Numbered from the whole stretch's first letter, positions 2,312 to 45,633 are shown. The stretch is 63,145 bases of DNA, filler included, from Diploschistes diacapsis (GCA_023645945.1; 15 parts of 15 records of this genome joined end to end with filler, not necessarily neighbours in it); one strand, 5' to 3'. Notes: generated from the sequence alone by a model not told the origin. Numbers and translations are program-made.

Positions 2312-2724
2312 GGAAGAGGAAGGACGGATACTGTAAAGGCCTGGCTCAATACTTCTGCACCCAGCCGTCGAGAAGGTTATGGGTGCAACGTTCGCGGAGT
2401 ATGAAGTTACCCGCTGGTCAGGCAGTGAAACGAAACTGTTCGGTATAGAGGCCAATTGACACTAGGTAGAACTTAAGTGGTTAAAAGGAGCAAATCCGAG
2501 GTCTTGAGGAAGATTAAACATGCTGTCAATAACGGAAGCCTATGTTCGGATGTTCTTTCTTGAACTTAGATTTTTGCCGAAAGCCGCCTCTGGCTACTGT
2601 TGCCTACGACATTAAAAGCCCTCCGTTGAAATCAACACCTACACTTAACTTGTCTTTCAACATTCGATTTCAACGGCGTTAATACCATTGCTTAAACCTA
2701 TCAGCGCTCATCAAATATCACAAT

Positions 2725-3186
2725 ATGGTAAAGCTATCAACCTCCACTAGCGAAGCCCCCGCCTGCTGACATTCCAATAGTCAAAAGACTCATCCCACCA
2801 CTACATCCACTTCAAGTCCTCCCGCCTAGCCGACCTCTTTGAGGTCCGTCCTTTTCTCTCTTCCACCCTTGCTTCCTTATTCCTTAAACCTCTCCTACTT
2901 ACACTGCTTATAGGAATTCTCCCGCCCTCATCTTCCGCAGGAGGAGATCTACGTCCCGCCCCAGCACCAGCCCGTCAACCCAGAAGACGAGGATGATGTT
3001 GTGCCGGATCAGCACGCTGCTTTTGGGATTCAACGCGCGACGCAGACAAAGCGCGAACCGGCCTGGAAGGATCTTGGATTGGAGGACCTAATGATCAGGG
3101 GCCCGAAGGAGGAGGACTCGGGTGCGGTGACCAGGGTTGCGTTGGAGAAGACGGTGGGGAAGAGGACTGTTGGCTTACCGCGATGA
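2725..3186 (+). CDS. APC13: Anaphase-promoting complex subunit Apc13/Swm1-like protein, 3 exons (ATG-only first exon 2725-2727; 2781-2843; 2913-3186)
   Basis: Spliced product MSKDSSHHYIHFKSSRLADLFEEFSRPHLPQEEIYVPPQHQPVNPEDEDDVVPDQHAAFGIQRATQTKREPAWKDLGL matches the fungal Apc13p pattern (W.DLGL); both introns are GT-AG. Confidence 0.8.
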
Positions 3187-3362
3187 GACCGTTACTGCGG
3201 TTTGATTCGCGGTGCGCAACTTACGGTGGATAATTGAACAGTGAGAAATAATCTCCAATGTTAGGAAACGCTTTTGAGCGTGTGCATGCTCTAATCCATC
3301 AACGAACGTGGACCAAGCCGCTAATCCTCGATACCCTGTTATGCATCACTCCGAAAAGAGAT

Positions 3363-5430: not shown

Positions 5431-5771
5431 ATTGAGTCTGCTTTAGTATGCTGCTAATGTGTTTTGGGTGAATCGTTGTTCTTGATTGTTGAATTTCGAC
5501 TTCGCGTAAATTGGAGGCTGAAGGAGACGTGACGAGCGCGTCGGCGTTATAATAGCGTGACAAGCAGCCGGCAATATCGGATCTTCTCCGTAGCGCAAAC
5601 ACAATTCAGGAACAAGGGGATCCACTACAGGGATGTTTTGGATTCCAACAAACAAAGATTTGGTTGTACTTTGCTATGGTTGTGAGCATCGCTGTTTGTC
5701 AACTTCATAGTGAGGAAGCTCCTTCTCGTTCAAATCAGCCAGATTTCGCTATCTCGTTATATCAATTCCCA

Positions 5772-7049
5772 ATGGCCGACGTTGCAGAAGCTCAAGCTCC
5801 TTCGCAGCCAGCAGAACCCGAGCTTCCACCCAAGATGGCCTCCACCGACTTCTCCACCTCCTCCAACTCCATAGTCGAGAACGACTCCATCATCAGTAAC
5901 CGCAAAACTGCATTCGCGCACCCCTCCAAATCCACCACCATACCTACAGCTCCAGAACTTACAACCGAGCAAGAAACAAAATACAACTCCTTGCACAACA
6001 CCGTCTCCTCATGGACCTCCCTACCCAATACCTCCGCCACCAACGCTTCATCTTCCCCGCTCACCGAAGCAGAACAAATGTGGCTATCACGAGAGTGCAT
6101 CCTCCGCTACCTCCGCGCCACGACCTGGAACGTCGCCCAGTCGGCGCAGCGGCTACGGGCCACGCTGATCTGGCGGCGCGAGTACGGGCTCTATACCAAG
6201 CTCACGGCGGAGTATGTGCAGGTCGAGAACGAGACGGGGAAGCAGTGGATTCTGGGCTACGACAACGCGGGCCGGCCGTGCCACTACCTGAACCCCTCGC
6301 GGCAGAATACGGAGAAGAGCGACAGGCAGATCGAGCATCTGGTGTTTATGATGGAGAGGGCGATCGACCTGATGCCGCCGGGTCAGGAGACGCTCGCGCT
6401 GTTGATGAATTTTGCGGAGACGAGTAGAGGGCAGGGCGCGACGCTCCAGCAGGGGCGGCAGACGATGTATGTTCTGCAGCATCATTATCCGGAAAGGCTG
6501 GGAAAGGCGTTGCTGATGAATCGTGAGTGGTGACCGCCCATGCCTGCCGTTTCTGGGAGGGTTCTAGTGAGTTGAGATGCTAACGAGGGGGGCATTCTAG
6601 TGCCGTGGCATATTTCGGCGTTCATGAAACTAGTGTTCCCTTTTATTGATCCACGAACAAAGGAGAAGATCGTTTTCAACGAGGATATGCGAAAATATGT
6701 CCCTCCGGAGCAGCTCCGCAGGTCGCATGGCGGCGATGTGGAGTTCGAATACGAGCATGGTGTGTATTGGCTATCATTAATAAAGCTTGCGGAGGAAAGG
6801 AGGAGACTGCAGCATGAAAGATGGGTTAATGGAGGTAAGATGATTGGAGAATACGAATTATATATGAAGGGCGGGCAGGATGAGAGTCTTTGTAGCACCA
6901 TGAACGTAGCCAATGAAGAGCTCGCTGAGAAAACGGCCGGCATATCATTAGACGGAAAGCAAGCAGAAACAGCCATGACGGCCAATGGCGAGGGTAAGAA
7001 AGCCAACGAAAATGCTTCCAGAGTGGATGCTGCTGTCTCAGAAATCTAG
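5772..7049 (+). CDS. PDR16: Sec14-like CRAL-TRIO phosphatidylinositol transfer protein (Pdr16/Sfh3 type), intron 6523-6600
   Basis: WLSRECILRYLRATTW, ENETGKQWILGYDNAGRPC, QHHYPERLG, PFIDPRTKEK, GGDVEFEYEH; GTGAGT...CTAAC...TAG intron joins the two ORFs. Confidence 0.9.
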
Positions 7050-7466
7050 TTTTTGATACCCTGGATTTGGCGTTTAGAAGTTAGACTTCATATTCTGTAA
7101 GATCTATAAACCATCGCCGCCATCAGATATAATGTATGCACTCTTCATACCTTTCAAAGATATTCCCGCATTGATAGACTTCACCCATTTATCTTTCTCC
7201 GTAAACGCTTGCGCGTATAACTCCGCCAAGTCTAGTTCCACAAGTGCAAATATCACGGATCGTAAAGTACACAGTCAGTTGCTTGGATGCAATTCAGGTG
7301 TCATGGCAACGTGTAGCGGTATCCTAGAGGATCTTGGACCAAGGCCTGATATGTGACTCTTCTCATCGAAGCGGCACGACGGTATCAAGCAGACTTGCGC
7401 TGTCGAGAGGCCGTGAGAAGCTTCATAGTTTATAAGCGATTTTTAAAGGGTGTTAAAAGATGTGGT

Positions 7467-8915
7467 TCAGGTATTTGTGCTTAAGCGATGGATGCTAGGA
7501 ACTGAGCTCGGGGGCAACGACCCATGCTCGGTAATGACCAGAGTGATGTACTCGGCTGGTGTCACATCGTACATGAGGTCGAGTAGCTGTAGACTTGGCA
7601 CGTCTTTCCAGCCGTTGAGGGGTGAGAATTTCTCGTGCTTCAAAGTCAGCTCATCTGGAGGCACTACCTCGTTGATCACGATAGAGTCTAAAGCTACTCT
7701 GTCGGTGAATTTGACGCTTTCGCAACAGACTATGACCGGAACATCAGCTTCTTTGGCCATCATAGCGACTATTGCTGTCCCAATGCGCGAGTAAAGTCTG
7801 CCGTTGCTTAACATCGAATGAGCACCCAGGAACACCTTTGTAGCGTCTTTCGTGAAATGCGCTAGAGCATGCGTAAACGAGTACTGCACCTCAATACCAA
7901 CATCTGCAAGTGCCTTTGCGAGATTCTTGCCTTCGAATAGGGGTCTGGAATCGACAATTATGACTCGGAATCTCACGCCTTGCCGGTAAGCCTTGATGAG
8001 GGTCTGTTGGACAACGTGGCTCTTGGCGAAAGTCAAGATTACATCTCCATCTCGGATCTTGTTGACGGCGGTTGAGGTTATGACCTGGTCGGCGACTGTA
8101 ATGCGCTCCCGGATGAAGTTGTCAATAGCCTCACAAAGGTCGGTTTTGGCCCTCTCCTCGGGCGTTTCGATATCTACATCGTTGATCTCAAGCTTTAGCC
8201 AGCGAATGGCGTTGCCCATGGACGCAGACATTGGTCGGCAAGACGTAAGATACTCGATCTGCGGAGACAGATGTGCAGTCAAGTTACGAGGTAAGGAAGT
8301 ACCAGGAGGCGTGACATAGGATTGGATGACCTATATATCAGCAATCAGAGCTAGCCTAAAACAATAAGACTGGTGTTCTTTTACCCTTTTAAAAGCGAGT
8401 AAAGTTCCAACACATCTTGCGCTGCTCCCACAGATCACGTAGTTGCTCATTTGCAAGCCCAGTGCTAACACTGCTGGATGCACATCCTTACTCGCCCCTG
8501 CTAAGGTGGTCCGATGCGACTGTCCATATAAATGTCCGAATAAGGCAACTTTCTTTACCTCCTTTGGGGGTTGCTCTGCAATAGCTTTCTCAGGCTTCTG
8601 GACTTGTCTTACCGGAAGTGGCTTTAGTGGCTGCTGAGGAACAACCTGCTTCTTTTCCTGGCTTTTCTTCTCTTGGGCTGCAGATGCTCCTTGTTTGGTT
8701 GAATTTTTCTTGCCCTGCTGTCCTTGGGCGGCTATCTCCGCACTCTGTCCAGAAGCAGTTTGAGGCTTCTCCTGTGCTCTCTTGGCTGCTTTTTCCGCTT
8801 TCTTTAGCTTTTTGCGCTCAGCGTTTGACAATTTCTGTATTTCTGCCTCAGACGCCTCCGGGTCAGTGTCTTGGGTGCCATTCGGCGTATTCTTAATTTC
8901 TTCTGCAACAGGCAT
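7467..8915 (-). CDS. GCD2: Translation initiation factor eIF2B delta subunit, intron 8384-8331
   Basis: Lys-rich N-terminus, VHPAVLALGLQMS...ICGSSARC, CRPMSASMGNAIRWLK, VIIVDSRPLFEG, YDVTPAEYI. Confidence 0.93.
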
Positions 8916-9431
8916 GGCAAATTCCTAAAGAAAGACAAGACATGGAGCTCTTTCCAAAGGATAGGTTACCTTTGCAGCACCAGCAGAAAACCTTTCTTCC
9001 GATCAAGAGATAATGTGAGTCACAAACCTAAAGAACAATGTTTGCTAAAATATCTTTATAGCGAGGATCGTCTATTAAGAAAAGTGGAAACGTCACAGCT
9101 AAGTGTCGTTGATGTGTACCACCTGGGGAAGGGGCTTGGAGCAACTAAGCTGCCGGGGTATTCTCCAGGCCTCGTTGCAATCACCCTAGAGGTTTACAAC
9201 CCGAGTTCAGTAGACGATATTTTCAGAATCCGAAATATTGGAAATTCAGAACTTCGGAACAAAAGCCTGGCGTTGCTGTCTGCATATCTGAGCTTTCGAA
9301 ACAAAAATCTGAAGGTAATTCATTTCGTTCCTACCGGAGCCTGCTGCCCGTATGTACAATATCGTGACACAAACACCAGCCGACAACGGCAACGCAAAGA
9401 GTAAAGCTATCACCGCTCGCGTCCTCGCCAA

Positions 9432-9807
9432 TCACTCCATCGACGAAGCTGCAGTAACCTGCGATTGTCCAGCCATAGTGCCCGCCGCGCTCCCCTGAGC
9501 TCCCTTCTCTCTCTCCTCCCTTCTCTGTCTCCTTTCTAGCAATCTGTTTCTCCTCTCTGCCAAATATGCGACCTGTCTATTCTCGACGCCCAACATCCAG
9601 TATCCAAAGCTTGCTCCTACCCCAGCGTAGACTGGCCAGGCCCAAAGGGACTCCTTATTGAAAAACGGACGCATCTCTATACCGAGCTGCCAGAAGCGCA
9701 CGGCAATGCCTTCGGAACATCAGTATATGAACCCGGTTTCATAAGAAAATTGCCTGTATTGAGGGAGGAAACATACCGAAGCCCGTCCAGAACAGAATCT
9801 TGTGCAT
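9432..9807 (-). CDS. NADH:ubiquinone oxidoreductase ~14 kDa accessory subunit (NDUFC2/B14.5b-like), intron 9776-9710
   Basis: Spliced MHKILFWTGFGIAVRFWQLGIEMRPFFNKESLWAWPVYAGVGASFGYW is the typical fungal pattern of this subunit. Confidence 0.82.
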
Positions 9808-10130
9808 GGCGTCGCAACGTAGTTTAACTTCTTATCAGTATCCCGATTGATTCGCCGTCCGGCTTAGTGTTGAGGATATATGGAGCTGAGGGTAAGTGTT
9901 TTGAATATCTCGAATGTAAACTTGTAGTGGAATGGCTGGTTATCGATCCGATCAGAAGGGTTGCTCACGTTGCTATGGCTTGTGATGTCGGAGAGCTTGG
10001 GCCGCTACTTGTAGGGCTGAGAAAAAACATAAGGATGTGCGAGTCGTTCTCTACAACACTGAAACGTAACTGATACCATTAGCACTGGACCTTCCAGCAA
10101 ATATTCTGCCCAGCATAAAACCTCTGATCC

Positions 10131-12548
10131 ATGCCAGCAGGTATGGCATCTGTGCATGCCGTTTCCGCAACAGCAGAAAACACCAGCCAGCCTCCGCGTA
10201 AGAAATTCAAGACATCCGAACTGCCACTCAATCATACCCAGCGTGCAGTCATAGATGGTCTTCTGCATACGCTTAAAAAGAAGGGCGAGTTTGACTCCGT
10301 TAGGAAACAGGCATGGTCAATGTTTGAAGGAGTTAGTTTTGATCGTCAGTATAGCAACGGTACCTTTCGCTTACTTTTTTTGCAATAGAATGGTAAAGAT
10401 GAGCTCAATCGGGCTTTGATAGAGTTTGCAGAGTCAGAGATTGAACGTGAACCACCGCTACTATCACGCGAGCCGCGTAAAGCGGCCACTTTGATCGAAG
10501 GCGCCGTTGACCGTAGTGGAATCTACAAAGATGTAGAAGCTCGACTTGACGCCTTCATCTGCGAGCATCTTGACCATATCGAATCTATTGCAAGATCAAT
10601 TCGTAGGCAAGAAGCGGGGGAGGAAACAGCTGCAGAAGAAGAACGACGTGGAAACAAGTCAGATGAAGTCTATGTTCAAGAGGTTGCAGAGCGGCGGGTC
10701 CGGCGAGAACAAATCCGCGCCAAAGAAGAAGCAGAGAAGAGAAAGCAGGAGGAGATTGAGAAGCTGCGTGAGAAAGAGAGAAAAGCGAAGCTAGAGATAG
10801 AGAAATTGAAGATTCAGAGCGAGAGAAAGAAAGAAGAGATTGCTCGGCTGGAAAAACGAAAGGCGGAGCGAGCAGCACGCAAAGAAGCTGAGAGGAAGCT
10901 TGCAGAAGAACGAAGAGCTGAGCAGCGCGCTCAAGAGGAAAAGCGGAGGCTCGAGGAAGAGGCAAGGCAGATGGAAAGAGAAAAAGAGAGGAGCGCTCGG
11001 AGAGAAAGAGAGAGCGAAAGGTACAAGAGCCACAGTAGAGAGCGGGAGCCTCGAAGACGTCGTCTCAGCGACGAAGGCGCGTCCAGGTCAGACGCCTTGA
11101 AACCGAAAACACTGACCGACAAAGAACTTGAAGAAGCAGCCCTCGAACTACTGCTTCAAGAAGGCCGAGATTTGGCTGCCAAGTCGTTGCCAAATCAAGA
11201 CACTGAAAGATCCGAGTCACTGGAGCCGCCGCTTCGCAAAAGCACTTCCACAAGACTGAAATACTCGGACATCAGCAGCAGGCCCAGAGAAGATCATCGT
11301 TTACCACCACGGGATCGTGATTCCAGACCGTCGTATCGAGATCATCGAAGTCGTAGCAGAAGTCCAGATCAAGATTCGAGGAGCAACCACCGCTCATCAC
11401 GAGACTGTAGGACTCGCTCTCGCTCTTCATCTCGAAATCGAACACCTTATCGTGATCATGCGAAGGATCCGGAGGAGAAGGCGGCATGGAAGCGAAATCA
11501 AGCTTTAAAACGCGAAGAAGCTGCTGCTCGTTACAAGCGCGAGATGTTGGAGAGAGGAGAGGGTTCGCAAACGGGTGGACCTCTTAACGAGCGATCGACC
11601 TCTGAGGCGAACATCTCAGTGCCTCGATCACGCGGCAGGTCTCGCTCACGCAGTCCTCATCCGGCTAGCAGGCAGGACAGATCTCATTCTCCTGTCGTTC
11701 GCAAGCAGCATGGTGAATTGTCAACACGGCAGAAATCACCCAGTGACATTGACCGATACGTTCCCAGAGCAACTCCGCAACAGAAAGACCCTGGTGAGTC
11801 TTCTACGCTCTTAAAACGGAAAGATGATCATCGAGAAAAGGTCAATGTTAGGGAAGCTGCTAGAGAGAAGGATCGGGTCGAAGATCGTGACAGGGATAGA
11901 GATAGAGGTAAGGACCGTGACCGTGACCGTGACCGTGACCGCGACAGGGAGAGGGACAGGGACAGGAATCGTGAGCGTGAACGTGACAAAGATGGTGATC
12001 GGGATAGGGAACGACCAAGCCACCACGACAGAGATAGAGATAGAGAAAGGACGAGAGACAAGGACAGAGACTGTCGCCGTGACCGCGACCGCGACTACAG
12101 AGACACAGAGAGAGATAGGGAACGTGACCGTGTTCGCGAGCGTGATCGTGACCGCGAACGAGAAAGGGATAGGGATAGGGATAGGGATAGGGACATGGAC
12201 AGGAATAGGGACCGCGACCGCGATCGTGACCGAGACCGAGATAGAGGTAGAGATCATGACAGGGACCGAGAAAAGGAGCGTGACAGGGATAGGGACAAAA
12301 GCCGCGAAAGACGGCGAGAACGCGATCGCGATGACCGCTCGGCCAGAGACAGGGACAGTCGTGATCACCGCAGTTATGACCATGACCGTCGCAAAGAAGG
12401 CGGAAGCCACCGCGACAAGGAATATCGGCCATCGGAGAAGAGTGATGAGAAGCGTGGATGGGTGGAGATCGATCGCTACGTGCCTGGCAGCAGCAGCTCG
12501 AAAAGAGTGGACAAGGAGAAGAAGCGGGAGCGCAGTGCGAGCAGATAA
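10131..12548 (+). CDS. BOD1/Shg1 (COMPASS-associated) domain protein with charged coiled coil and long RD/RE dipeptide tail, intron 10332-10388
   Basis: N-terminal LLHTLKKKGEFDSVRKQ resembles the COMPASS-Shg1 domain; GTTAGT...TAG intron joins it in frame to the 710-aa ORF; two IDRYVP motifs flank the RD tract. Confidence 0.78.
11870..12420 (+). repeat. Coding hexamer-periodic repeat (GACCGT/GATAGG/GACAGG) encoding the RD tract
   Basis: Directly visible tandem hexamers with synonymous variation. Confidence 0.9.
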
Positions 12549-13142
12549 CGTGCATACTACAGCATATAGGCAGGTATGTACGAGAGCACTATGATGCAAG
12601 TTTATTCCCACAAGATCATAGCGACAGGACAGAAAAAGAGTGAAGTGGATTATGAAATTTTTATTTAAAGTCTTTGGTCGGAGTTCGTGTCCTTCAGTGT
12701 TCCATACTCCTCCCCCAACATTTAATTCCCAAGCGAGAACAGCAACCAGAACAGGCCAAGCCGAAATAGAACACGAACGGCAGTTCTTCTTCCCAGATGC
12801 CCCAAAACGCCAAACGCCGGATGCCGAAGTCGAGGTGCGCCACTCCACAGCTGAAGCAGAAAACAGAGCCAAAGGCCTCGTCGCTATCGTCGTTCATTGT
12901 CATAGTGTCCAAGCACCCCAGATGCCCAACGCTGTCGAAGACCTTCCCAGTTTCATTACGACAAGTCACGATGCCCGAAAAAAAAAAGACCAGATCCCCA
13001 ACGATGCCGAAGACCCTCCCGAAAACCCCCATGATGGCAATGCTCAACGACGCTTCCAAACCCCAACCGCTGACAAGGCGAAGCTTGTCATGCTAAACTC
13101 TAGACTCCGCCAGCCCCCTCGGTTTACCTCCACTAACCAGAA

Positions 13143-13391
13143 TTACCGAGACGACAAGTGGGATGCTCTGCTGAGGAGCGGCTGGATCTCGGCGCGGTAG
13201 GCTCCGGCGCCGTACCTGGCACGCCCGCTCTCGAGGGATGAAGCAGAAGCAGCGGAGAAGTAGGAAGTTCCCGAACGGTAGTTGGAGGTGGTGGCGCGGT
13301 TCCGGGCTTGGGCGCGCTGGCTTGTGGGCAGAGGGCTCGTTGGCTCCTCCTTGCCCTTGTTCCTTCCGAAGAGTCTCTTGAAGAAGCACAT
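13143..13391 (-). CDS. Possible small hypothetical protein (MCFFKRLFGRNKGKEEPTS...)
   Basis: ATG in an A/C-rich context after a CA-rich leader; no recognised domain. Confidence 0.3.
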   Translation of the reverse strand: MCFFKRLFGRNKGKEEPTSPLPTSQRAQARNRATTSNYRSGTSYFSAASASSLESGRARYGAGAYRAEIQPLLSRASHLSSR

Positions 13392-15693: not shown

Positions 15694-16541
15694 TCAGTTC
15701 TTCCACATGCTATCCGCATCTATTACACTATCAGCTTCTTCCCAGTCGACGACCTTAAGGGCTTTGGGTTGTCCTTACCTGGATGAATATCAGGCTTTTC
15801 GATGTATTCTCTCTGTTCTCGCTTCTTCGCCGAATCAACACCGAACCTCTTGTCCCTATCCGCCCATGCTTCCTTCGTCTTCTGATTAACAGTCTCCTCT
15901 CCGGTGAAGCTCATCATAAGTATCGGCTGGCCCATTGGCAGCTTGTCACCCCTGTCGACTTGCCAGAAGTGGTAAGTCTTTCCATACAACCCCACAACCT
16001 CTTCCATTTCCTTCATCTCAGCAGTATCCCATGCCGCTGACGGCACGAGAGAGGTGGAGGGCATAATCAGCATGCCAGACTTGACCTCATAGATGTGCGA
16101 ATGCCACAGCTTGCGCTCTTCTTCTGGTAGCGTCTTGTAGAGCCGAGCAGATATCATGTACTCGACCCCAATGAGACGCGCGTTGCGCTCAGTCGAGTCG
16201 TAGATAATGCATTGCCGGACATCTAAGATCGTCAGTTCTGGACGCTAGTGGGAAACCTCAGCTGTGCCAGAGCATGCCCTGTGCCCACCTTCGTTGATGT
16301 GAGAACAGTAGTGATTAGCCTCTACACATCTTTGTTTATCCGAAGCGTAGGCGTGAAAGGCGTTGAGGTGAGCACAGATGGAATGGGTAGGGCCAAATTC
16401 CTGTATCAGCTGTCAGCTCCCCATAATCTGAGACCCGCCAAATCTGCTTGCCTGTGAAAGGGAAGCTCCTGTCTCTAGAACTTGGCTTTTAGAGGACAGT
16501 GGATCCCCCTTAGCATCGTTGGTAGTGGCGATATTGTCCAT
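15694..16541 (-). CDS. DUF1264 / oil-body-associated protein (OBAP)-like, 4 exons (16541-16452, 16400-16289, 16222-15779, 15719-15694)
   Basis: [70 protein letters not shown]; the first intron has a GC donor. Confidence 0.9.
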
Positions 16542-17132: not shown

Positions 17133-18394
17133 CTACACCAAGACAGCCGCCTTCAGAATAACAGTCCTCATCCCCCAATTCGTTCCCTCGTTATTCCCAA
17201 ATTTGAATACAGCCGGAAAAACCACGCTTTGGACCTTCCTGCCCTTCAGCTCTTCCGACCTCTTCACTTGCAGCACGTCCTCCATCACGGCAGGATCAAA
17301 CATGGAATTCGTCGGCCTCTCGAACGTGAAATTCGCCCGCTGCTGAGCAAGATCAATGGCCAGTTGCTGCGCGCCAGACACGATCCGCTCGAGGCCTTGC
17401 AGACGGTTGCCGGACGCGGGAGCGTTGAGCAGAGTGGAGGCGGTATAATCGATGCGGTGAGCGAGAGCAGAGACTGCTTCGGTCTGGGAGGAGGTTCGGC
17501 CGCCGGTGGAAGAGGAGAGGAGGGACATGGTCAGAGACCGCCATTGGGAGATGGCGGCGGGATCCGCTTAGTTTAATTCAGTACGTGGAAGAGCTCCTGA
17601 ACGCTGTGATGGAGTGGGCGTGCAGCTTACCGTTTTTTGAGACGTTATCCTTCATACGCGAGTATTCTTCATTTCCAAATAAGGTACCATTACTCATAGC
17701 TTCGGCAAGGCTATCGGCTGCAATCGCTCGAAGGACGAGGAAACGTGTTCGAGGTTCCTGCATCAGGTACGAATAGTTTGGTTGCGTGCGGATCAGCGCA
17801 GATGTCAGTTCACGTGGCGGAGATGCTGCCGGTCGGCTGCTTTTGAAGTGAGTAAGAACCCAGTCACCAATTTCCTTATTAAGTCTTGAGAACCGGCTGT
17901 GCACAGTCTTGTCGTCCATGATGTGAACAGCATTCCCACCACGTCCGGACGTGAAGACTGCGCCTGGAGCTCCATGAGAGTGGGCATCTCCAGAGTTTAG
18001 GTCGTCCCGAGTGCTCTCTAGCTTGTCCTTCATGGCAAAAACCGCCGGATCGTTATCCGAGCTTGCTGCGGGGGCATATCGGCTTCCTGGGCTGGATTAG
18101 TATTTGAAGGGCTCGTTTGGGGGAGGTACGAACGTCGGTGGCGGAACAAGACAAATGCAAGAGCAGCGAGAGCTATTGCAGCTACGGCCGCTAGTACTGC
18201 AAGCCCTGCGATCAACCCAGATATTGATGGAGTTGAGGGCGACGAAGAAGCGGACGGAGACGAGGTCGGAGTTGTAGCACTGGGCCTCAATACTCCGGTA
18301 AAGGATGCACTCGAATTGCCTAGCCCTGGCTGCATTGTGGAAGGCAAGCCTGCGGATGATGAAGTTTGAACACTGGAGGATAGGGTCACTGTTC
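17133..18394 (-). CDS. Single-pass membrane protein: Ser/Thr-rich ectodomain, TM helix, cytoplasmic helical domain ending in a GrpE/MIEAP-like beta domain (5' end unresolved)
   Basis: Three ORFs join through introns 18133-18087 (GTTCGT..TACTAAT..CAG) and 17630-17567 (GTAAGC..AAG). TM helix ISGLIAGLAVLAAVAAIALAALAFVLF followed by RHRR; C-terminal motifs WRSLT, FDPAVMEDV, VVFPAVFKFG, VILKAAVLV*. Confidence 0.78.
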
Positions 18395-19153
18395 CTAGAA
18401 TGTTGCCGCCTACTCCTATAGCAAGATCCTCTGTCGTGTGAACAGGACCATAGCGTGAAATTTAAAGACTCCCGTCAGTTTCCGTTATGGTAACTGTTGT
18501 GGGTGTTGCACCACCAGGGAAGATTGTTAAAATTTGAATTGAGGTTGTCGCTATGCCCTCACAAAGTCAACGCAAAGTATGAATATGAGGATTAATTGAA
18601 GTAAAGCAAGTTTAGCACAACTTGGCGAAAAGGAGTCTATCCAGCAGCCGCAAAGCGAGAACAATCTCTAAGAGTAATCACCAGCACAAAGCAATAATAT
18701 GTTCTAACCTCCCTGGGTTCAGCTCCATCATGGATTCATGCACCATGCACCTCCCCGGTTCCTGTTTGCCTAGGGCAAGGCTGAGTGAGGTACAGTAGGT
18801 TCTACTGATTTTAATAGGACCGGATCTAAGATTGGTTCAGTTGAGGAAAAGCCAAAGCATGGATGGGGGTACAAGGGCTGTGTACTCCATGGGCTGTGCT
18901 GAGCCGAATCGTCGGCGTTTCTGTTCCCAGTAGTCAAAAACTAGAGAATATGAAGACAAGCTTGCAATCTAGTGGCTTTGATACAGACACGCCAGTCTCC
19001 TTTGCCTGACCGGTCTGACTCTCTTGCAGCACACACGGTTTGGCTAAGTTAAGGCCAGGACTCTCGCTTACACAAGGAAAAAGATGTCTTCATTCGCTGA
19101 AAGAACCTCGAAAAATCCCCTACGACCTCGTCACCGTGGTCAAAGGGGCAGCA

Positions 19154-20972
19154 ATGGCAGCATCAGTCTCAGCTTCATCGACAACGAACGGAAACGGAGA
19201 CCTGCATCGCATCGTGGTCGGCATCGACTTTGGCACAACCTTCACCGCCGTCGCCTGGGCGGAAACCTCGCGCCCTAGCCAGATCGAGCTCATCACCAAC
19301 TGGCCGACCGCGGGCGCGCTCGTCGGCGCACAGGTGCCCAGCGAACTAAGCTATCCCAACGATGGCGACACGACCAACTACTCCTGGGGGTACAACATCA
19401 GCCCGAAAGCGAAGAAAGTGAAATGGTTCAAGCTCGCCCTCGAGACGGACAGCGACATCTTCAAGCTCCCGCCCAACATCCAGCCCATCACGGTCGTCGA
19501 GCACTTCCTCACCGCCGTGTACACGCACACCATGTCGACCCTGTACCGGCGCTTCGACCGCAGCGTCATGGCCACCGCCTCGGTCGACTTCGTGCTCACC
19601 GTGCCCGCCATCTGGTCCGACGCGGCCAAGCAAAAGACCTTTGACGCGGCGCGGCGCGCGGGCATGGGCAACGAGCACAACCTCGACCTCCTCTCCGAGC
19701 CGGAGAGCGCGGCCATCTACACGCTCAAGAACATGGACTCCGGCAACTCGGCCGTCAGCGTGGGCGACCGCATCGTCGTCTGCGACTGCGGCGGCGGCAC
19801 CGTGGACGTCATCTCCTACGAGGTGCGCCAGATCCGGCCGCAGCTGCGCGTCGCTGAGGTCACCGCGGGCACGGGCGACTACTGCGGCTCGACATTCATT
19901 GACCAGGAGTTCGAGCGGCTCTTCCAGCACCGCATGGGCGCCCTGTACGCCAAAGTGCCTATGCAGAACAGGCAGCAGATCGTGAAGAACTTCGAGCTGT
20001 GCAAGATCGCCTTCCGCAACGACGCCAGCCTGCCGACCTTCTACGTCAACGTGCCCACCATGAGCGACGTGCCCGAGGCCGGCATCTACGGCGGCATGTT
20101 CGAGATCACGCGCGAGGAGATGCAGGCCCTGTTCGCGCCCGTGGTCGAGTCGGTGATCCGGCTCGTCAAGGCGCAGGTGCTCGCCGTCAGCGAGGGCACT
20201 TTCCGCGCCAACTCGATCATGCTGGTCGGCGGCTTCGGCGAGTCTGAGTACCTGTTCCAGCGCATCGAGAGCTGGGCGCGGCCCTACCGGATCCAGGTGA
20301 TCCAGCCGCGCGACGCGTCGACGGCGATCGTGCGCGGCGCGGTGATGCGCGGGCTGGAGCCGAAGCACGCGGCCGCGGCGGAGAAGACGGAAGTCCTGCG
20401 GCGCGCGCGGCGCAGCTACGGCGTGCCGACCAACCAGATGTTCATCCCGGGCAAGCACTACGACGCCGACCTGTATGTGGACCCCGAGACGGGCGAGCGG
20501 CTGGCGCGCAACCAGATCAGCTGGTTCATCCGCAAGAACCAGGTCATGGGGGACGAGGCCATATTCCGTACGTTTTTTTCGTGTAACCCCCACCCACACT
20601 TCCAATCTCCTATGCAAGGGACGAACCAAAAAAAAGAAATGTACAAGAACTAATTTTGTTTCGTGCATCCGTGTAGGCCACGCCTTCAAGCGCAACTTCA
20701 AGATCCTCACGCCCTGGAACGACCTGCTGGTCTCCTCGACCGACGACGTGCCGCCCACGTGCTGGGACGCCAGCGTCACCAAGCACTGCACCGTCGTCTC
20801 GGACCTCACGCGGCTGGACAAGAGCGCGAGCTTCGAGAAGCGCTGGCGCCGGTTCAGGAGGTACTACGTCGCCAACTACGAGCTCGCCATGGGGCTGCGG
20901 AACAATAATCTGTCCATTTGGCTGGAGTACAATGGCAAGCGGTATGGGGTCGCGGACGTGGACTTTGAGTGA
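19154..20972 (+). CDS. Non-canonical Hsp70 (HSPA12-like, actin-fold ATPase), intron 20568-20676
   Basis: GIDFGTT, LTVPAIW, SEPESAA, DCGGGTVD, LVGGFGES, IVRGA, RRSYG, WFIRK; short C-terminal domain with no helical lid and no EEVD. Confidence 0.93.
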
Positions 20973-21522: not shown

Positions 21523-21622
21523 NNNNNNNNNNNNNNNNNNNNNNNNNNNNNNNNNNNNNNNNNNNNTTAATTAATTAANNNNNNNNNNNNNNNNNNNNNN
21601 NNNNNNNNNNNNNNNNNNNNNN
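21523..21622. other. Artificial contig spacer N44-TTAATTAATTAA-N44. Identical spacers start at 23067, 24610, 26153, 27695, 29235, 50846, 52386, 53925, 55463, 57000, 58537, 60074 and 61610
   Basis: Identical 100-bp blocks with stop codons in all six frames. Confidence 0.99.
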
Positions 21623-22259
21623 ACGGTAAAATATCTATAAAATATATAGCTCCGGATATCAATCTTTTTATAATAAATATATATCTTACGATATAAAGCC
21701 GAGCTATAATACAACCAAGACGAATACCCGAGATAAAAATACGAATACCTATAAAAACCAAAAGATACATACATCTCCGACCGAAATATCTAGGCTAAAT
21801 AAAAATAACACTCCACGAAACACACGAGATATACATACCGAACAAGATAATTTTAATAATAAAAAACATCCTTTAGAAAGAATAGTCAAACCAACAACCA
21901 TACCTAACCCAGACATAAATAAATAGGATCAAACATCTACTAATGATCTGTAACAGCGGGGGTAGTGCCTAATAGGGTAGCGCTATCCCACTGAGCCAGA
22001 AGACTAACCACAATGCTTTCAGGAACCCCGAAGCACTGTTTCCCTATTACACTATATGTAGGTGCGTGGCTGTGGCAGCAGGCGGCAGATGTGTAACCCC
22101 GCAGGCCTTACATGATCCAACACCTAGACCTCAAACTCGCGATATCATACCGATCTTACGGACCTAAGATGCACGATTACGAAAACAATAATACCGACAT
22201 CGTGAAATTATTAAGCTAGTTAAACCACGTTTAGAAATAATAAACGCTAAAGACGTATT

Positions 22260-22602
22260 AACTATAATTAAGATTATTATAAAAAAAACCTACGATAAAC
22301 GTTATAAGACCTATTTTATAAAAATTAGAAATTATACTATATTACGTTTATATCGGAAATATAAGCTATCTATTATAATTAATATCAAGCTTTCCGTTTA
22401 ACTTACTAAACTTTTTAAAATCTTAAAACGTATTAATAAATTAATTTATAAATTATAATTATCGGATTATTATTATATTTATGATATTATTAATATTACA
22501 TATTTCGAGCCGGTATTAGATCCAATTAACAATCCTTATAACAAACGATTTTTACCGCCGCCGTCTATAACGATCGAAATCGACAAAAAATTCGAAATCG
22601 AA
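22260..22602 (+). mobile_element. RIP-mutated Ty3/Gypsy (chromovirus) integrase C-terminus and start of chromodomain
   Basis: Translates to LRLYRKYKL...KLSV*LTKLFKILKRINKLIYKL*L...IYDIINITYFEP...PPP...FEIE, a mutated form of GPFKILERVGxLAYKLELP...IHxVxxxxxLEP...EEFEVE. Confidence 0.75.
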
Positions 22603-23066
22603 TGTTATGATCTCTATCTATACAAGATATACACGAGTAGGATTAAGGTGGGTTTGGTCTCTGTTAGAAGAGGAGTGTGGTAGGAGAAGAAGATAGAGCA
22701 GTTATAGATCTTAGATTATTTCTGGAAAGAAGGTTCTTTAATGATAGAGGTAACGAATATAGATTAATTTCGAATAATCGTTAAAGATATTTATAAAAAT
22801 AAATACGTCTTTTTTTACGAAGGTAAAGTCGTGTTTATATATAATTAACTCGCTCGCCGTTTATCGTAAGCTTAACGAGCGGTATTCTCGAGGCTCGCCG
22901 TTCATAAGAATAAACGCGACCGTCGAGCGGTAGCGAAAGCTCGCTTATTTACTTACGAGAATAAGCGCGAGTAATAAACGCATCACGTGACCTCTGATCC
23001 CGTAATTAATCTATATATAAAGCTGGGATATGTTAAGTTTAGTATTTGGATCGTAATATTATCTTC
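22603..23066 (+). mobile_element. LTR of family A (starts TGTTATGATCTCTAT), inserted in the Gypsy relic, truncated at the contig end
   Basis: The same 5' sequence recurs at 56783, 60395 and 62414. Confidence 0.75.
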
Positions 23067-24449
23067 NNNNNNNNNNNNNNNNNNNNNNNNNNNNNNNNNN
23101 NNNNNNNNNNTTAATTAATTAANNNNNNNNNNNNNNNNNNNNNNNNNNNNNNNNNNNNNNNNNNNNGGGCGGGGTTGCTGGTGAGGGGCGGTAGGTAAGG
23201 GGTGATAGATAAGGATAAGGGTGCTTGAGGGGGTGCTTCACGCGGTCGATTGATTGTCGGTTTCGAGGATGCCGACGAGGTCGAAGGGGAAAGTGCAGGA
23301 CAAGGGAAGGCAAGCAAGTGGCATTCGAGCGAGGAGGTCGAGTCGGTCGGGGGAAGAATAAGGAAGGGGGGATACAGACGATTTTGTTTTTCGCTCGGCC
23401 TCTGGCTCCTGGCCTTTGGCATCGGCTTGGCTTGTTGTTAGAGAGTAATACGGGAGCGTCCCGTGCATTACGTGTATCCTCTGCATTAGATGCATCCTTT
23501 TAAATTTTGTGCATTCGAGATATATATCCTCAGTATCCTTTGTGTTAAAAAGGGTGGAAGGAATGATCCCTAATTAGGTAATATTGGGTAATGGAATAAA
23601 TGCTAGTGTGCTTGCGGTAATACAATAATAATATATTATTATTGTAGGAGGTAAAGAATGTAATGAAGATAAAGATAACGCTAATAAAAATAGAGAGGTT
23701 TAGTAACGCTGTCAATGCGCTCGCTGCGTAAGTCTGGGTGTGGCTGGCGCTTTTTTTGGGGCCGTAACAATAAACTAATCCAAATTAAATAATATATTAA
23801 AATATAATCATTTTACGTTTTTAAAGATATATTTTAAAGGGCCGTAAGGCCTTTATTATTTTTATTTTTTTGTTACTCCTAAAAACAAAACACGAGGCGC
23901 TAAAAAAAGCAAAGGGTAAAAAGATACGAAAATATCTGTCAGTATAGACTCAAATTGTAGTGTGTGTAGAAGATAGTATTTCAAAAGCTACTGAGGGCAG
24001 CGAGCCCTTTATAGATACCAGGTATGTGGATGCCTAAAGGCATCGTGGCCCATTGCGTCACAAGCGACAGCAGCGAGGGCAGGTGCAAGCGAACCCCCTA
24101 GTAACAATAGCAGTAGCAGTGGCAGTAGCAACAGCTAATAGCCATAGCAGCTACTACAATATCCACCGACACAAAATGCTTATGTCTATATAAGTAATAT
24201 CCCAAACAGATACCGAATAAGCGAGATAAAACCCTCGACATTTGTCCCAAAATATTTTAACAATATACCTAATATTACTATCCTTTTCTTCTATTATTAA
24301 AACAACTTTGCTCTTTTATCAAGATTATTTTTATAGCGTAGACATAGTCCCTATTTTATATCCCTTATAATCCTATATCTACGGCGTCGTTGTGCCTTTG
24401 TTTAAACTCGGCGATCCGGTTTATTAAATATTTCTATAATTCTCGATCC

Positions 24450-24609
24450 GTGATCTATATATTATTAATATCGTATATTTCGAGCCGGTATTAGATTTAA
24501 TTAACGATCTTTATCGCCGACGATCTTTGCCGCCGTTATTTATAATAATAAGAATTAAGAAAGAATACGAAATAAAACGGTTCTTTATTAAACGCCGTAT
24601 ACGTAAAGG
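24450..24609 (+). mobile_element. Second RIP-mutated Gypsy integrase/chromodomain fragment
   Basis: Homologous to 22490-22600 (TATTTCGAGCCGGTATTAGAT); encodes EYEIKRFFIKRRIRK (chromodomain start). Confidence 0.65.
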
Positions 24610-25362
24610 NNNNNNNNNNNNNNNNNNNNNNNNNNNNNNNNNNNNNNNNNNNNTTAATTAATTAANNNNNNNNNNNNNNNNNNNNNNNNNNNNNNNNNNN
24701 NNNNNNNNNATTATAAACCCGGATTTATATCTATTTTATTACGTTCAATCGTTTATTAAAATTACGTCTCCCGGTAGTTAATACGGACACGAACGCGAGC
24801 ATCGATTACGTTATTTAACGTAAATTAAATCGAAAAAATCTAAAAGTTTAAAATTTAAATTATAAAACCTTAAAGTAAACTGATTTAAAAATAAAAGTTA
24901 TATTACTTTAAAAGAACGCGAGACTTTAATACGCTGACCTAAAATAGACCTAAATAAGAAATAATTAGATCCAGATATCATTTATATAGGCCAACGAAAA
25001 ACAACCTTCTTCTCTTTCTCGCCAATATCGAAGTTTAATTAAATTATATTAAACCCTATCGATCATCTATTAACTATTGAAATCCAACCGAACCGCTATC
25101 TTCGTTATTAGATTTATTTAATCCCTTCGTTAATCATCGATATTCAATTATATGAAACGCCAGCGCAGGAAAGGATGCTACTCTACCGGGGGCTGAGCCT
25201 GATCCGGAAGGATTAGGTGTAGCTTGGGCATCTACAGGTAAAAGGTCTCGATTCGAAAAGCTGAAAAAGAAACTATTTAGATGGGAAAAAGGCACCGTTA
25301 AGTAGTATGGATGCTAGACCTACCGGGGTTCGGGGATTACCCATCTACACAGCCACCTCCTG

Positions 25363-25519
25363 ACCCTGCCGTATCTTGGTAAGCACCTGGGCATTAACCC
25401 TGCCGTGTCTTGGCAAGCACCTGGGCATTAATTCTGCCGTGGCTTGGCAAGCACCTGGGCACTAACCCTGCCGTGTCTTGGTAAGTATCTGGGCATTAAT
25501 CCTACCGTGGCTTGGCAGG
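25363..25519 (+). repeat. 34-bp minisatellite, about 4.6 copies (ACCCTGCCGTGTCTTGGCAAGCACCTGGGCATTA)
   Basis: Units start at 25363, 25397, 25431, 25465 and 25499, with no spacers. Confidence 0.92.
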
Positions 25520-25761
25520 CCCCTGAGCTGGGCTGTTTTACTACCCCTCTTTCTAGATACTTATATCTCTTATAAGCGCGATATTCTTTTTCAGTCAATC
25601 TCCACCTCGATCTTCATCTCTTTTTCTAATTTATTTAAAAGGATACCCGTTATTCTTTTGTAATAAATATTTCCGTCTCTTTAAACCCTTTTCAACGTCG
25701 TTTTTAATTAAATACGCTCCCAAATTCTATAAGAAAATATAATCGTCATAATAATCGATAC

Positions 25762-26152
25762 TGTTTGGCAACGTAATGGATATATTGAAGTCTAGAGGTC
25801 TTATCTAGGAGGTTATCCTACTTTACAGACTTTTATCCTCGTGGGATACACTAAGCCCTACTACCTACACTATTCCTTATTCGGTCTAGTTGGAATTCCA
25901 GGAAATTCAACTGAACTGAACCCCGGAATTCAGCTGAACTGAACCTCTTTCTAAAACTCAGTTGTATTCTCAACCATATCTTCTATCTATCTATTTAATA
26001 CTCCCCCACAGGCGGAATTACCCGACATAACTATATAATTTAATTAAATATCTTTTAAATTAAACCGAGTCCTTTAATAAAGGCGTCGTGCTTCGAATAA
26101 TTTAATGATTTCGTAAACCCGTTAACAATCATTTTATCGATAGGAACATAAG
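25762..26152 (-). mobile_element. Ty1/Copia 3' end: RNase H remnant, polypurine tract and ~240-bp 3' LTR
   Basis: Minus strand encodes YVPIDKMIVNGFTKSL (compare Copia YIPTxEMxADGLTKPL); GGGGGAG PPT at 26007-26001 abuts LTR 26000-25762, which ends CCAAACA. Confidence 0.8.
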
Positions 26153-26987
26153 NNNNNNNNNNNNNNNNNNNNNNNNNNNNNNNNNNNNNNNNNNNNTTAA
26201 TTAATTAANNNNNNNNNNNNNNNNNNNNNNNNNNNNNNNNNNNNNNNNNNNNGGATTTAACGGGGTTGACCAGGTACTATATATTGTCACGAAAATATTA
26301 AGAATGGCGTATTTTATATTACGTAAGCGTTGATATTCGCGGCGTGAGAGCTTTAGCGAGTTTTCAACGCTAGTTATCCGGCGCTAAATTAGCGGATTTT
26401 TTAATATTTTTTTCGAAAAAATAATTTTTTTAAAATATTAAAAAAATGCTTTTTTATTTTTTGATTAGGTAATAAAAATGATTGGCCTCGCTATCTTCGC
26501 CGGTTTCGCCAGTTTCGCCAGTTTCGCCAGTTTCGCCATGTTTCGCCAAACGTTTTGGCGAAAGCTGGCGAAATGGGCGAAACCCGCGAAACAGGTACTT
26601 TCGTTAGAAATTTTTTTTTGCTTGAAAAACTTTTCGTGATGTTTTCGTTATTTTAATAGAACAACTTTTCGAATATTTACTCGAGAAGCTAGCCCCCGAA
26701 TAAGAAATAACGAAAGTTTAATAAACGGTACTGATTATATATAAGTATAACGATAAATACCGTGCCGAGTAAACGGCGCGTGAAAAGAGAACAAAAGCGA
26801 AGACGGGAAAGATAATAACGAAACCGGCGCGCGAGGGGAGGGGTGAAAAGACGGCGGAAGAGAAATAAAGGAACGACGAGGAAGCGGAACGGGACGAGAA
26901 AGAAGTCGAAAAAGATGTTATCGAAAAAAAAGATATTAAAAGATGTTTTTTAATATTTTTAAAGGTTCTTAAATATATATTAATATA

Positions 26988-27694
26988 ACGTGTTTGACGG
27001 TGAGTCCGGCCACCCCCAGAGTCCGGCCACCTTAAATTACTATCGCCAACATTCTACGGTTTTTAGATATAACCTATTCGTCGCAATTAGAATCTAATCG
27101 ATCTAAATCGAATCTATTTTCTTCCTCTTTATCTTCCTCAATTTCAGAAATGCGACGACGTTTTTTACGCGTTATAGGTCGTTTTAAAATTATTTAACTC
27201 GATTTAATGTAAATTATTATTTTAAGAACTTCGTCTATATTAAATATAAAACGATTTTTTAATTCGATTCGTTTGTTTAATTTACGTTTTTTACGATTAT
27301 TAAGAAGCGTTTTTTGTTCTCGATTTTCTTTACGAAGCGTTGTGAACTTAGTATACGTAGATTTAAGCATACGGGTTATTCGACTCGAATAACGTCGAAT
27401 CGGATTAATCAGTTCTAGAACGGTTCGTAACGCCTAATTAAACTTTTTATTAACCTTTCGTAGTTCGGTCGTATTTAATAGAGAGCTATATAATAAAAAT
27501 AAATCTAAATCGAATTGATTCGAGGTTAAAAGAGGGCTATAAAATAGAGATAAAGGGGTCCGATAGATCGAATAAAGTTTATTAAACACGGTTATAAAAT
27601 TAATAAATTATAATTTAATATTTATAAAATTTGCTTAAACGTTTCGACTCGTAACAGCTCGATTCTAAATTATTAAAAATAATTTAATTTATTC
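26988..27694 (-). mobile_element. pogo/Fot1-type DNA transposon end with RIP-mutated transposase C-terminus
   Basis: TA|ACGT terminus with an internally duplicated GAGTCCGGCCACC; minus-strand basic coiled-coil remnant (LRKENREQK...RKKRK). Confidence 0.65.
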
Positions 27695-28008
27695 NNNNNN
27701 NNNNNNNNNNNNNNNNNNNNNNNNNNNNNNNNNNNNNNTTAATTAATTAANNNNNNNNNNNNNNNNNNNNNNNNNNNNNNNNNNNNNNNNNNNNCCCTGG
27801 TAGCCCTTATTGGGTTTTGCGTATTACAAATAACCTTTCGTTTCCGTCGCTTATTTATCGTAATAAGATTCGTTTCTTATGATTACGACGCGTTTTTTCG
27901 GTTCGATTATCGTTATTTTTATTATAGAAAATTAATCGTTATATTATTTATCGATCATTTATTAATTACGAATTATTTATTTAATAAGTCTTTTTTATTT
28001 ACGAAAAT

Positions 28009-28330
28009 TGTTTGGCAACGTAATGGATATATTGAAGTCTAGAGGTCTTATCCTAGGAAGTATCCTACTGTGCAGACTTTTATCCTCCACGGTGTGCGCT
28101 AAGCCCTACTACCCTAACCGGTCTAGCCAAAATCCCAGCAGGTTCAGGGGGAAGCTCAGCTAAACTGAACTTCCTAGTTCATCTAACCTGAATCTTCCAG
28201 AATTGGATCGAGCCTACCATACCTTCTACCTGTCCGCTCAACACTCCCCTTTAGGCGGAACCGTTCAGTATATCTAATCCAACTAGATCTTTTAACCTAG
28301 GCCAGTCCTAATAAATTAATAGTTTCGTAC
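28009..28330 (-). mobile_element. Second Copia 3' LTR (28243-28009) with PPT
   Basis: First ~42 bp identical to the 25762 copy; on the minus strand AGGGGAG|TGTTGAGC...CCAAACA. Confidence 0.78.
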
Positions 28331-29346
28331 GAAGTAACCCGTTTATTAAATAACTTATCTTTCATCTTATTGCTCTTTTTGATCGAATAGGTTCAACCCT
28401 AGTACAGCCGAACTTCAATAATTATCGAAGAATATCGAACAGGTTCAGTAATAGGTATAACTAAATTCTCGATAATTATCGAGGGTTTCGACTAGATTCA
28501 ACAACATAAGTAACGTGTAATACGCAGAACCCAATAAGGGCTACCAGGGGGTATGCCAAGCATATACCAAGGCCCGCTAACGTGTTCTTATATAAGAGCA
28601 GAGTTTTCGTAGATAAAAATAATTCTTTAAAAGTTATTTCATCAATATATCTATCGTCTAATAAAGGTCTAACCACCGAATAATTATTTATCTATCTTAT
28701 TATTATATTATAGTATTAATTTTTATAATTATAACTTCTTTTCTTTCTTAAAAATTACGGTTCAAAATATAGCAAATAATTCGCGATCGAAACGCAATAC
28801 CCGTCTATAATCATAAAATAAACAAAAATTAAAAAACGAGTTTAATAAATCGTAAACTTTTAATAACCGATTTATAAGCGAAATAATATCGAAAGAAGAA
28901 ATTCTTAACTCTATAAAACTAAAATAACTTCGATTAAAAGATATTCGACTATAAGAACGAATAAAAATACTAAAAATGAAAAAAAAATACTATAATCTAA
29001 AAGACGTTTAAAACGTATCGAAAACGACGTTAAACGATTAAAAATTAATAAAGAAATTTTCGACGTTAATATTTATTTCAACGTTAACGCGACGCCGTTA
29101 ATTCGTAAAAGACGAGCGAGCGAAAATTATTAAAATGCTAAAAATCATTATCTTAAATTTAAAAAACTTCTAAATTATTAAAAAAAATCTATCCGAAAAT
29201 ATTAAGAATGATTTTAGATCGCTAATAATTCTTTNNNNNNNNNNNNNNNNNNNNNNNNNNNNNNNNNNNNNNNNNNNNTTAATTAATTAANNNNNNNNNN
29301 NNNNNNNNNNNNNNNNNNNNNNNNNNNNNNNNNNAATTACATTATA

Positions 29347-43639: not shown

Positions 43640-44002
43640 ACTTGCAGCAGGTTATCAGGTTGGCTCTTGAGTGAGTGCTGCTGTTAAGTTCAGCCTGGAT
43701 TGGCGCACCAAGACGCGACTAGGAATATGACAGGTTGCAGAGACGAGGTTAATGCTATCCAGCCAAGAACTGAAAGAACCGGTAAAAGGTCACGATGGAT
43801 TTGAAGGTGGGTGTTTATCTGCTGTGTCAAACAGAGGCGGGTGTTGAAATAATAAACCCTTTAACAAACGATTCATTTTACATTGACACGAGATATAGCA
43901 TTTTTATGTGGCCCTCTATTTGCTTACCTCCTATTGTAGCGCATCTCATTGTCACAGCAATCAATAGGCCAGTCGGTTCACATCGCCTGATCTCAGCACG
44001 AT

Positions 44003-45467: not shown

Positions 45468-45633
45468 ACATTCAATCATGCTCGCCCAGCCCTTGATTTA
45501 ACTCGTTTCATTTCCTCACAGTCCTTTGTATATGTACAATATCCATGCCGTCGCGTAAATTCAACCCCCGACTATGTGTAGCCTCCAACTCCGTAAAGCC
45601 ATGCAGCCATGCTCTTTGAATTGCCGTTTGATC

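Follow-up and report, generated by a model that had tools for sequence, protein, structure and literature searches.

The window analysed here is a stretch of 63,145 nucleotides from Diploschistes diacapsis (GCA_023645945.1), in which 15 parts of 15 records are joined end to end with filler. Between positions 17,133 and 20,972 it carries two divergently transcribed genes: one codes for an Hsp70-like ATPase, the other for a single-pass membrane protein whose C-terminal domain resembles the nucleotide-exchange factor GrpE. Their head-to-head arrangement is conserved and the two partners have diverged in step, a result strongly supported by the recurrence of the pair in metagenomic fungal loci. 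On balance, the pair appears to represent a two-gene fungal module in which an HSPA12-like Hsp70 ATPase is accompanied by its own divergent GrpE-fold cofactor, probably serving nucleotide exchange.

The two genes of the locus

Three open frames occupy the minus strand of this region. The first (18030-18461) carries a Ser/Thr-rich stretch and the hydrophobic helix LIAGLAVLAAVAAIALAALAFVLF followed by RHRR, the second lies at 17578-18096, and the third (17133-17567) ends with ...FDPAVMEDV...VVFPAVFKFG...VILKAAVLV before the stop. GT..AG introns, read from the sequence, link these frames in frame into one single-pass membrane protein, as proposed in the initial annotation. The exon with the first in-frame ATG (18130..18335, ATG at 18335-18333) encodes about 40 Ser/Thr/Pro-rich residues, a transmembrane (TM) helix of 24 hydrophobic residues (18215-18144) and the stop-transfer sequence RHRR. 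By the positive-inside rule, an established principle, the remainder of the protein after RHRR is predicted to be cytosolic. The outer segment is short, of low complexity, poorly conserved and devoid of a recognisable ligand-binding domain. It may be longer than the ATG at 18335 indicates, since a putative further 5' coding piece (about 18465..18566, minus strand, …ILTIFPGGATPTTVTITETDG) resembles the N-terminus of the homologue P0017, VILTIFYPDGAHFTTASIP; this piece is open but has no ATG, and a start codon sought by eye was not found.

Intron 1 can be drawn in two ways, both in frame. A 38-nt intron at 18092..18129 is favoured because it leaves GSRYAPAA.SD.D, conserved with the relative P0001, within the coding sequence; a 68-nt intron at 18066-18133 (GTTCGT...TACTAAT...CAG) is favoured because its donor, branch and acceptor signals are better. 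The middle exon, at 17631..18091 or starting at 18065 under the longer intron, encodes a short coiled-coil remnant and a conserved helical region (DDKTVHSRFSRLNKEIGDWVLTHFK ... RTRFLVLRAIAADSL); it shares 29-39% identity with the TM homologues P0006, P0012, P0016, P0017, P0027, P0045 and P0091, and 24% with an eighth, P0056. Across the junction at intron 2 (17567..17630, 64 nt, GTAAGC...AAG), the spacing of 20 residues is that of the full-length homologue P0006. The last exon (17133..17566) comprises 144 codons and the stop (17133-17135), and its product is predicted to fold as three helices followed by a small β domain.

On the plus strand, the Hsp70-like gene starts at the ATG at 19154. Its exon 1 (19154..20567, 471 codons and one base) encodes a full nucleotide-binding domain (NBD); after an intron of 109 nt (20568..20676, GTACGT...TAG, likewise read from the sequence), exon 2 (20677..20972) encodes the C-terminal about 98 residues, ending in DVDFE with the stop at 20970-20972. 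In tblastn searches, matches to exon 2 sit after exon 1 in the loci L153, L106 and L087. The Hsp70 match is limited to the NBD (Pfam PF00012, E 3.4e-12, above the cut-off): positions 5-395 of the profile align end to end with residues 2-369 of the DnaK NBD (E 7e-21), and the best solved relatives are the NBDs of DnaK and mortalin (E 7e-21 to 3e-18), both of which work with GrpE, with BiP and Hsc70 narrowly behind (~1e-17). The ATPase motifs GIDFGTT, SEPEAAA, DCGGGTVD and VGGFGES are intact, and in an alignment of 62 relatives D25, G27, T28, T29, E182, D211, G213-T216 and G359-G362 are invariant or nearly so. These residues are presumably the phosphate and adenosine motifs of Hsp70, and because they are invariant in the family, the protein is probably an active ATPase.

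Beyond about residue 395 of about 568, neither Pfam nor profile comparison of the sequence yields any match to a substrate-binding domain (SBD); no Pfam family is found in exon 2, and the EEVD terminus is absent. The product is accordingly an Hsp70 of which only the NBD is matched, in agreement with its earlier description as lacking the lid and EEVD. Its relatives come from lichen-forming and other ascomycetes and bear database names such as 'Heat shock 70 kDa protein 12A' (P0377, 36% identity) or 'Actin-like ATPase domain-containing protein'. Such genes are multi-copy in some fungi, with several, for example, on one contig of Tuber magnatum. The region between the two start codons (18336..19153) is presumably a shared promoter. 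The spacing was initially put at under 0.8 kb: this is approximately right, within a range of 0.6-0.8 kb, as 818 bp separate the two ATGs, a distance that becomes smaller if the upstream exon is real.

A probable GrpE-like fold of the C-terminal domain

An AlphaFold model of the last exon (144 residues, 121 homologues, predicted local distance difference test (pLDDT) 94.9) exhibits three helices, including those at residues 25-47 and 53-74, followed by a small β domain of six short strands. When this model is compared with 350,542 chains by Foldseek, ranks 1-5 are all GrpE (E 0.12-1.8), with more GrpE at ranks 7 and 21. In a second structure search, independent of Foldseek, unrelated helical hairpins lead (best Z 6.1) and human GrpEL1 occupies rank 18; GrpEL1 is one of four among the 50 chains listed that span both hairpin and β domain, and the sole one whose alignment exceeds 80 residues (Z 4.9, 94 residues, 28-144). 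The Z scores of Foldseek's own matches are 4.9 for 9bls_B (residues 28-144), 4.7 for 3a6m_A and 4.5 for 1dkg_B, and only GrpE aligns across hairpin and β domain.

Because helical hairpins swamped the search with the 144-residue model, the β domain was also modelled alone, from the last 73 residues (pLDDT 88.1). Of 48,161 representative solved chains, only 18 then reach Z>=2. The first three are human GrpEL1 (9bls_B, Z 4.8, root-mean-square deviation 3.9, 52 aligned residues, 21% identity), Escherichia coli GrpE (1dkg_B, Z 4.2, 4.5, 59 residues, 19%) and Thermus thermophilus GrpE (3a6m_B, Z 3.8, 3.2, 49 residues, 22%); rank 4 drops to Z 2.6, and a fourth GrpE, 4ani_A, appears at rank 7. Foldseek places GrpE at ranks 2, 4, 5, 6 and 9 for the same domain. 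The match rests on predicted models and on moderate scores. Despite these modest scores, the fact that one small family heads two independent rankings leads us to regard the tail of the membrane protein as likely to be GrpE-like in fold, and common descent with GrpE is plausible.

Sequence comparison points in the same direction only weakly. No match to the Pfam GrpE family (PF01025) is found for the window protein or for P0001, nor for any of the 67 long relatives at E<=0.01. Two of the 53 short relatives have sub-threshold matches (15.7 and 12.3 bits, for a cut-off of 25.8): in P0058 (E 0.013), residues 17-106 are colinear with positions 53-141 of the 165-position profile, while P0014 is matched at E 0.14. 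Two matches at E<=0.14 to one named family in 53 scans of 24,736 families would be expected by chance at about 3e-4, a figure that helical composition could inflate. Local hhalign comparison with a GrpE profile yields a colinear alignment (P 0.013) in which FD..MED is paired with LDPNVHQA; this profile comprises Enterobacteriaceae only (86-99% identity to E. coli GrpE) and is not diverse, which makes the hhalign tests weak ones. A search of the PDB with P0001 by phmmer returned nothing.

The initial annotation had also suggested a comparison with the C-terminal domains of plant GIL1/IRKI (here PF24994) and MIEAP. Kinship to the former receives slight support from two of the 53 short relatives, matched below the threshold in the β-domain region (P0053, E 0.019; P0118, E 0.076; 15.4 and 13.5 bits, for a cut-off of 27), and no such match exists for the window's own protein. 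MIEAP is listed in none of the Pfam scans of the window protein, P0001 or the relatives.

A family defined by its C-terminal domain

An exhaustive search with the last exon retrieves at least 150 cluster representatives at E<=1e-3, 34 of them at E<=1e-10, and in every member found the GrpE-like domain is C-terminal. Because of this breadth, and of the layout shared by eight long relatives, the domain is not a chance open frame. No Pfam family covers it in the 67 long relatives, the window protein or P0001, and an ESM Atlas search with the homologue P0006 returns unnamed Ascomycota clusters only (0.86). A search of 401 Pseudomonadota genomes with the family profile gives six weak matches (E 0.0025-0.037), none of them convincing; the sole one that covers β-domain positions is an unrelated protein of 182 residues.

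A strong internal hydrophobic segment occurs in eight of the 72 relatives of at least 300 residues, at the same place as in the window protein and with Kyte-Doolittle maxima of 2.5-3.3. These eight and the window protein share one layout: a Ser/Thr-rich N-terminus, the TM helix, a short coiled coil, the conserved helical region and the C-terminal domain. Most of the other long relatives exhibit weak, below-cut-off matches to coiled-coil families in their N-terminal part. To be mentioned as well are an AKAP7-type 2'5' RNA-ligase-like domain, located N-terminal to the GrpE-like tail in two of the 67 long relatives (P0117 and P0148; E 1e-18 and 8e-25), and three very long proteins (1,781, 2,421 and 5,251 residues) that end in the GrpE-like domain.

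A conserved and co-diverging head-to-head pair

The 62-sequence Hsp70-like alignment identifies 80 metagenome loci with relatives of the Hsp70-like protein (28-59% identity), whose neighbouring genes are typically fungal. The six-frame open reading frames (ORFs) of all 80 loci were searched with a hidden Markov model (HMM) of the GrpE-like domain, which is found in 20 of them. As short flanks hide partners, counts are given for the 41 loci with at least 2 kb upstream and the 38 with at least 2 kb downstream. In 17 of the 41, the GrpE-like domain is encoded 0.2-3.5 kb upstream in the opposite orientation, that is, head-to-head; the rate is 15 of 33 when at least 3 kb is available. Downstream matches number two in 38 loci, both about 4.7 kb away. 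Two near-duplicates (L155/L159 and L088/L094) bring the paired loci to 15 distinct ones.

The genes that flank the pair vary by lineage and include a heterokaryon incompatibility (HET) domain gene, a palmitoyl thioesterase, a sugar transporter, a P450, a proteasome subunit, Nha1 and a Zn-cluster factor, with CDC45 common to L138, L152 and L158 and Velvet to L138 and L158. The HET gene (L094:1712-2521 (+), E 2e-25) is the sole hint of a non-self context among the 15 paired loci. No third recurrent gene accompanies the pair among the 90 flanking ORFs of these loci. In total, the pair recurs in at least eight flanking contexts, and in the Hsp70-like gene tree, which holds 15 of the 17 paired loci (L149 and L152 fall below its length filter), paired loci are scattered over several deep clades.

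The two partners have also diverged together. For 16 non-duplicate pairs, their identity matrices correlate with a Mantel r of 0.71 (p 1e-4, 1 of 10,000 permutations as high), and the same subgroups appear in both. The nearest relative of the window is L153 in both matrices (48% and 37%), and L153 possesses the same TM-bearing three-exon gene. We regard it as very likely that the two proteins act as partners. The linkage suggested by the initial annotation thus extends beyond this genome, and its GrpE-like domain is borne out by the structural rankings; given the fold and the recurrent pairing, neither a lack of structural similarity to GrpE nor an absence of linkage in other fungi describes these genes.

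Proposed mechanism and alternative explanations

The module would combine an HSPA12-like ATPase, with intact catalytic motifs and without a recognisable SBD or lid, and a dedicated cofactor encoded by the divergent gene, whose C-terminal helical hairpin and small β domain would have the GrpE fold. The cofactor appears to be a soluble coiled-coil protein in the majority of modules, dimerised presumably through its coiled coils. In the subfamily of the window, the coiled coil seems largely replaced by a single membrane helix and the short Ser/Thr-rich segment outside it, and the GrpE-like part would therefore be tethered to the cytosolic face of the membrane. This tethered, probably dimeric part would bind the NBD of the partner ATPase, open its nucleotide cleft and speed ADP release, and the ATPase would thereby cycle at that membrane. 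Direct docking through the GrpE-like part is reasonably probable; nucleotide exchange as the activity, deduced from the GrpE-like fold of the model, stands at about an even chance or slightly below it.

Several results weigh against this scheme. None of the structural matches to GrpE is conventionally significant, the best Z being 4.9 and the Foldseek E never <=1e-3. On enterobacterial GrpE the score of the family HMM does not exceed 1.9 bits, the local hhalign alignment described above has a probability of only 3.3%, global alignment gives nothing, and comparison with the single E. coli GrpE sequence reaches a probability of 0.5%. Searched against PDB sequences, the family profile returns coiled-coil and low-complexity matches only, and no GrpE. 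The HSPA12-like label derives from the source names of relatives, and the introns and the 5' end of the membrane protein gene are putative. No J-domain gene is linked to the pair among the 90 flanking ORFs or the 27 large ORFs of the window. Part of the co-divergence may stem from a common history of the source species, and L138, L152 and L158 are orthologues in conserved synteny. Finally, 24 of the 41 informative loci have no upstream partner. Twelve of these form one tight clade (L112, L114, L109, L115, L117, L120-L122, L124, L136, L160 and L161) that evidently does without a GrpE-like partner, its upstream flank being 7-10 kb in eight loci and 2.3-3.3 kb in L120, L124 and L161; it may use another partner or none. 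Outside this clade, 17 of 29 loci are paired. A weak GrpE-like match on the same strand (E 1e-4) is observed upstream in L121, a member of the clade.

Linkage and co-divergence speak for a partnership and are silent on catalysis. The two proteins might accordingly cooperate in another manner, the GrpE-fold domain docking on the ATPase as an anchor, adaptor, inhibitor or client-delivery factor and not as an accelerator of exchange. This would accommodate the large parts that are absent from GrpE, namely a conserved helical region of ~130 residues, long coiled coils and the TM helix, as well as the RNA-ligase-like domain of two relatives, and the sequences resemble GrpE too little for judging whether contact residues are kept. 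We know of no role of the GrpE fold other than nucleotide exchange, however, and it serves this function in every solved complex that was matched (1dkg, 9bls and 8gb3), which makes docking without exchange rather unlikely, if the most serious of the alternatives.

A more radical explanation would be that the resemblance to GrpE is due to chance or convergence, and that adjacency reflects a shared bidirectional promoter or inherited synteny with no direct contact between the proteins. The Z scores of 3.8-4.9 are indeed of a size that the search tool describes as common, the E values of Foldseek lie at 0.1-3, profile methods miss GrpE, and some of the paired loci are orthologues in conserved neighbourhoods. 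Yet GrpE fills ranks 1-3 of 48,161 chains, separated by a gap from the next, and ranks 1-5 of 350,542; two independent sub-threshold Pfam matches fall on GrpE among 24,736 families; and the pair is found in at least eight contexts and several deep clades, head-to-head every time, with an upstream to downstream ratio of 17 to 2. Coincidence on this scale is improbable. Very improbable is the proposal, put forward initially, of a surface sensor presenting an exchange factor to the ATPase upon an outside signal, as a signalling or non-self/stress switch and not a chaperone: the outward Ser/Thr-rich segment and single TM helix of the window subfamily, the HET gene beside one paired locus and the multiple Hsp70-like copies of some fungi agree with it, but the segment has no recognisable ligand-binding domain, most paired partners are soluble coiled-coil proteins devoid of an anchor, and the neighbours are mostly housekeeping genes, both in the window and in the paired lineage with CDC45 and Velvet.

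Genomic surroundings

The window is fungal in character, with short GT..AG introns, a GC content of about 50% and genes located between AT-rich blocks. The 3' end of the membrane protein gene is adjoined by a gene for a DUF1264 protein (PF06884, E 8e-62) at 15726-16244 (minus strand), which is not a common neighbour of the pair at other loci. Housekeeping genes are found at 550-13197 and 40242-50053: they code for a GDA1/CD39 nucleoside phosphatase, DNA polymerase alpha subunit B, a Sec14-like CRAL/TRIO protein, an eIF2B-family subunit, COMPASS Shg1, TAF7 (TAFII55) and a Bromo_TP protein. Two long ORFs, at 32899-36570 (minus strand, 1,224 residues) and 41150-43255 (minus strand, 702 residues), have no Pfam family. 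The AT-rich blocks at 21523-29334 and 50846-61709 (GC 0.28-0.36) contain 14 pairs of 44-base N runs, the two runs of a pair being 12 bases apart and the pairs recurring about every 1,540 bases. They look like a masked stretch within a tandem or dispersed repeat of ~1.54 kb, possibly an element degraded by repeat-induced point mutation (RIP).

Relation to known systems and significance

The membrane protein family shares several traits with GrpE (PF01025; 1DKG, 3A6M, 9BLS): a helical hairpin followed by a small C-terminal β domain, a helical or coiled-coil part N-terminal to the hairpin (many relatives have weak coiled-coil-type Pfam matches), a gene paired with that of an Hsp70-type ATPase, and a motif F-D-x-x-x-M-E-D that aligns with (F/L)DPxxH(E/Q)A of GrpE. 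GrpE itself is a homodimer held together by long N-terminal helices, its two-helix hairpin making up one half of a four-helix bundle. The family differs from GrpE in having no significant PF01025 match (best E 0.013), in its length, which is two to three times as great and includes an additional conserved helical region, and in being membrane-anchored or fused to long coiled coils. Its partner is an SBD-less Hsp70-like protein and not DnaK or mortalin. Furthermore, whereas the known eukaryotic GrpE homologues are organellar, this family presumably resides in the cytosol of a eukaryote. The exchange factors generally assigned to Hsp70s of that compartment are Hsp110, HspBP1/Fes1 and BAG proteins, with GrpE restricted to organelles and bacteria.

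The ATPase itself resembles the atypical Hsp70s of the HSPA12A/HSPA12B type, a likeness drawn from source names, in its NBD with intact motifs and its lack of lid and EEVD. In the accessible part of a 2026 review, the function of HspA12 is given as unknown and no cofactor is named (PMC13580251). In a 2025 review on GrpE-like exchange factors (PMC12987570), a word search retrieves no instance of HSPA12, cytosol, Mieap, membrane-anchored, fungal or non-canonical. A literature search, from which subscription journals were largely absent, brought up no description of a GrpE-like partner for proteins of the HSPA12 type. Plant GIL1/IRKI (PF24994) and animal MIEAP/SPATA18 likewise combine coiled coils with a small conserved domain at the C-terminus; all PF24994 matches of the family fall below the Pfam cut-off, and no link of GIL1/IRKI or MIEAP to Hsp70-type ATPases was found in the same literature.

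The pairing of GrpE with Hsp70 is known; here it would take a diverged, eukaryotic, HSPA12-type-specific and membrane-anchored form. A broader and more tentative proposal, which we hold as a possibility short of even, is that HSPA12-type Hsp70s have ancient GrpE-derived exchange factors in the eukaryotic cytosol, overlooked because they have diverged beyond sequence detection: fungi would keep the head-to-head pair, and the plant GIL1/IRKI tail, possibly also animal MIEAP, would be further members. If this is true, the membrane-anchored subfamily of the window would localise the cycle of an Hsp70-type ATPase to a membrane.

The family of at least 150 cluster representatives defined here has neither a Pfam model nor a name. 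Its occurrence, as a GrpE-fold partner, beside HSPA12-type ATPases across many fungal lineages provides a concrete cofactor hypothesis that can be tested at the bench, with a hint that the tail of plant GIL1/IRKI may be of the same kind, and the existence of a form tethered to a membrane suggests a membrane as the place where some of these ATPases act.

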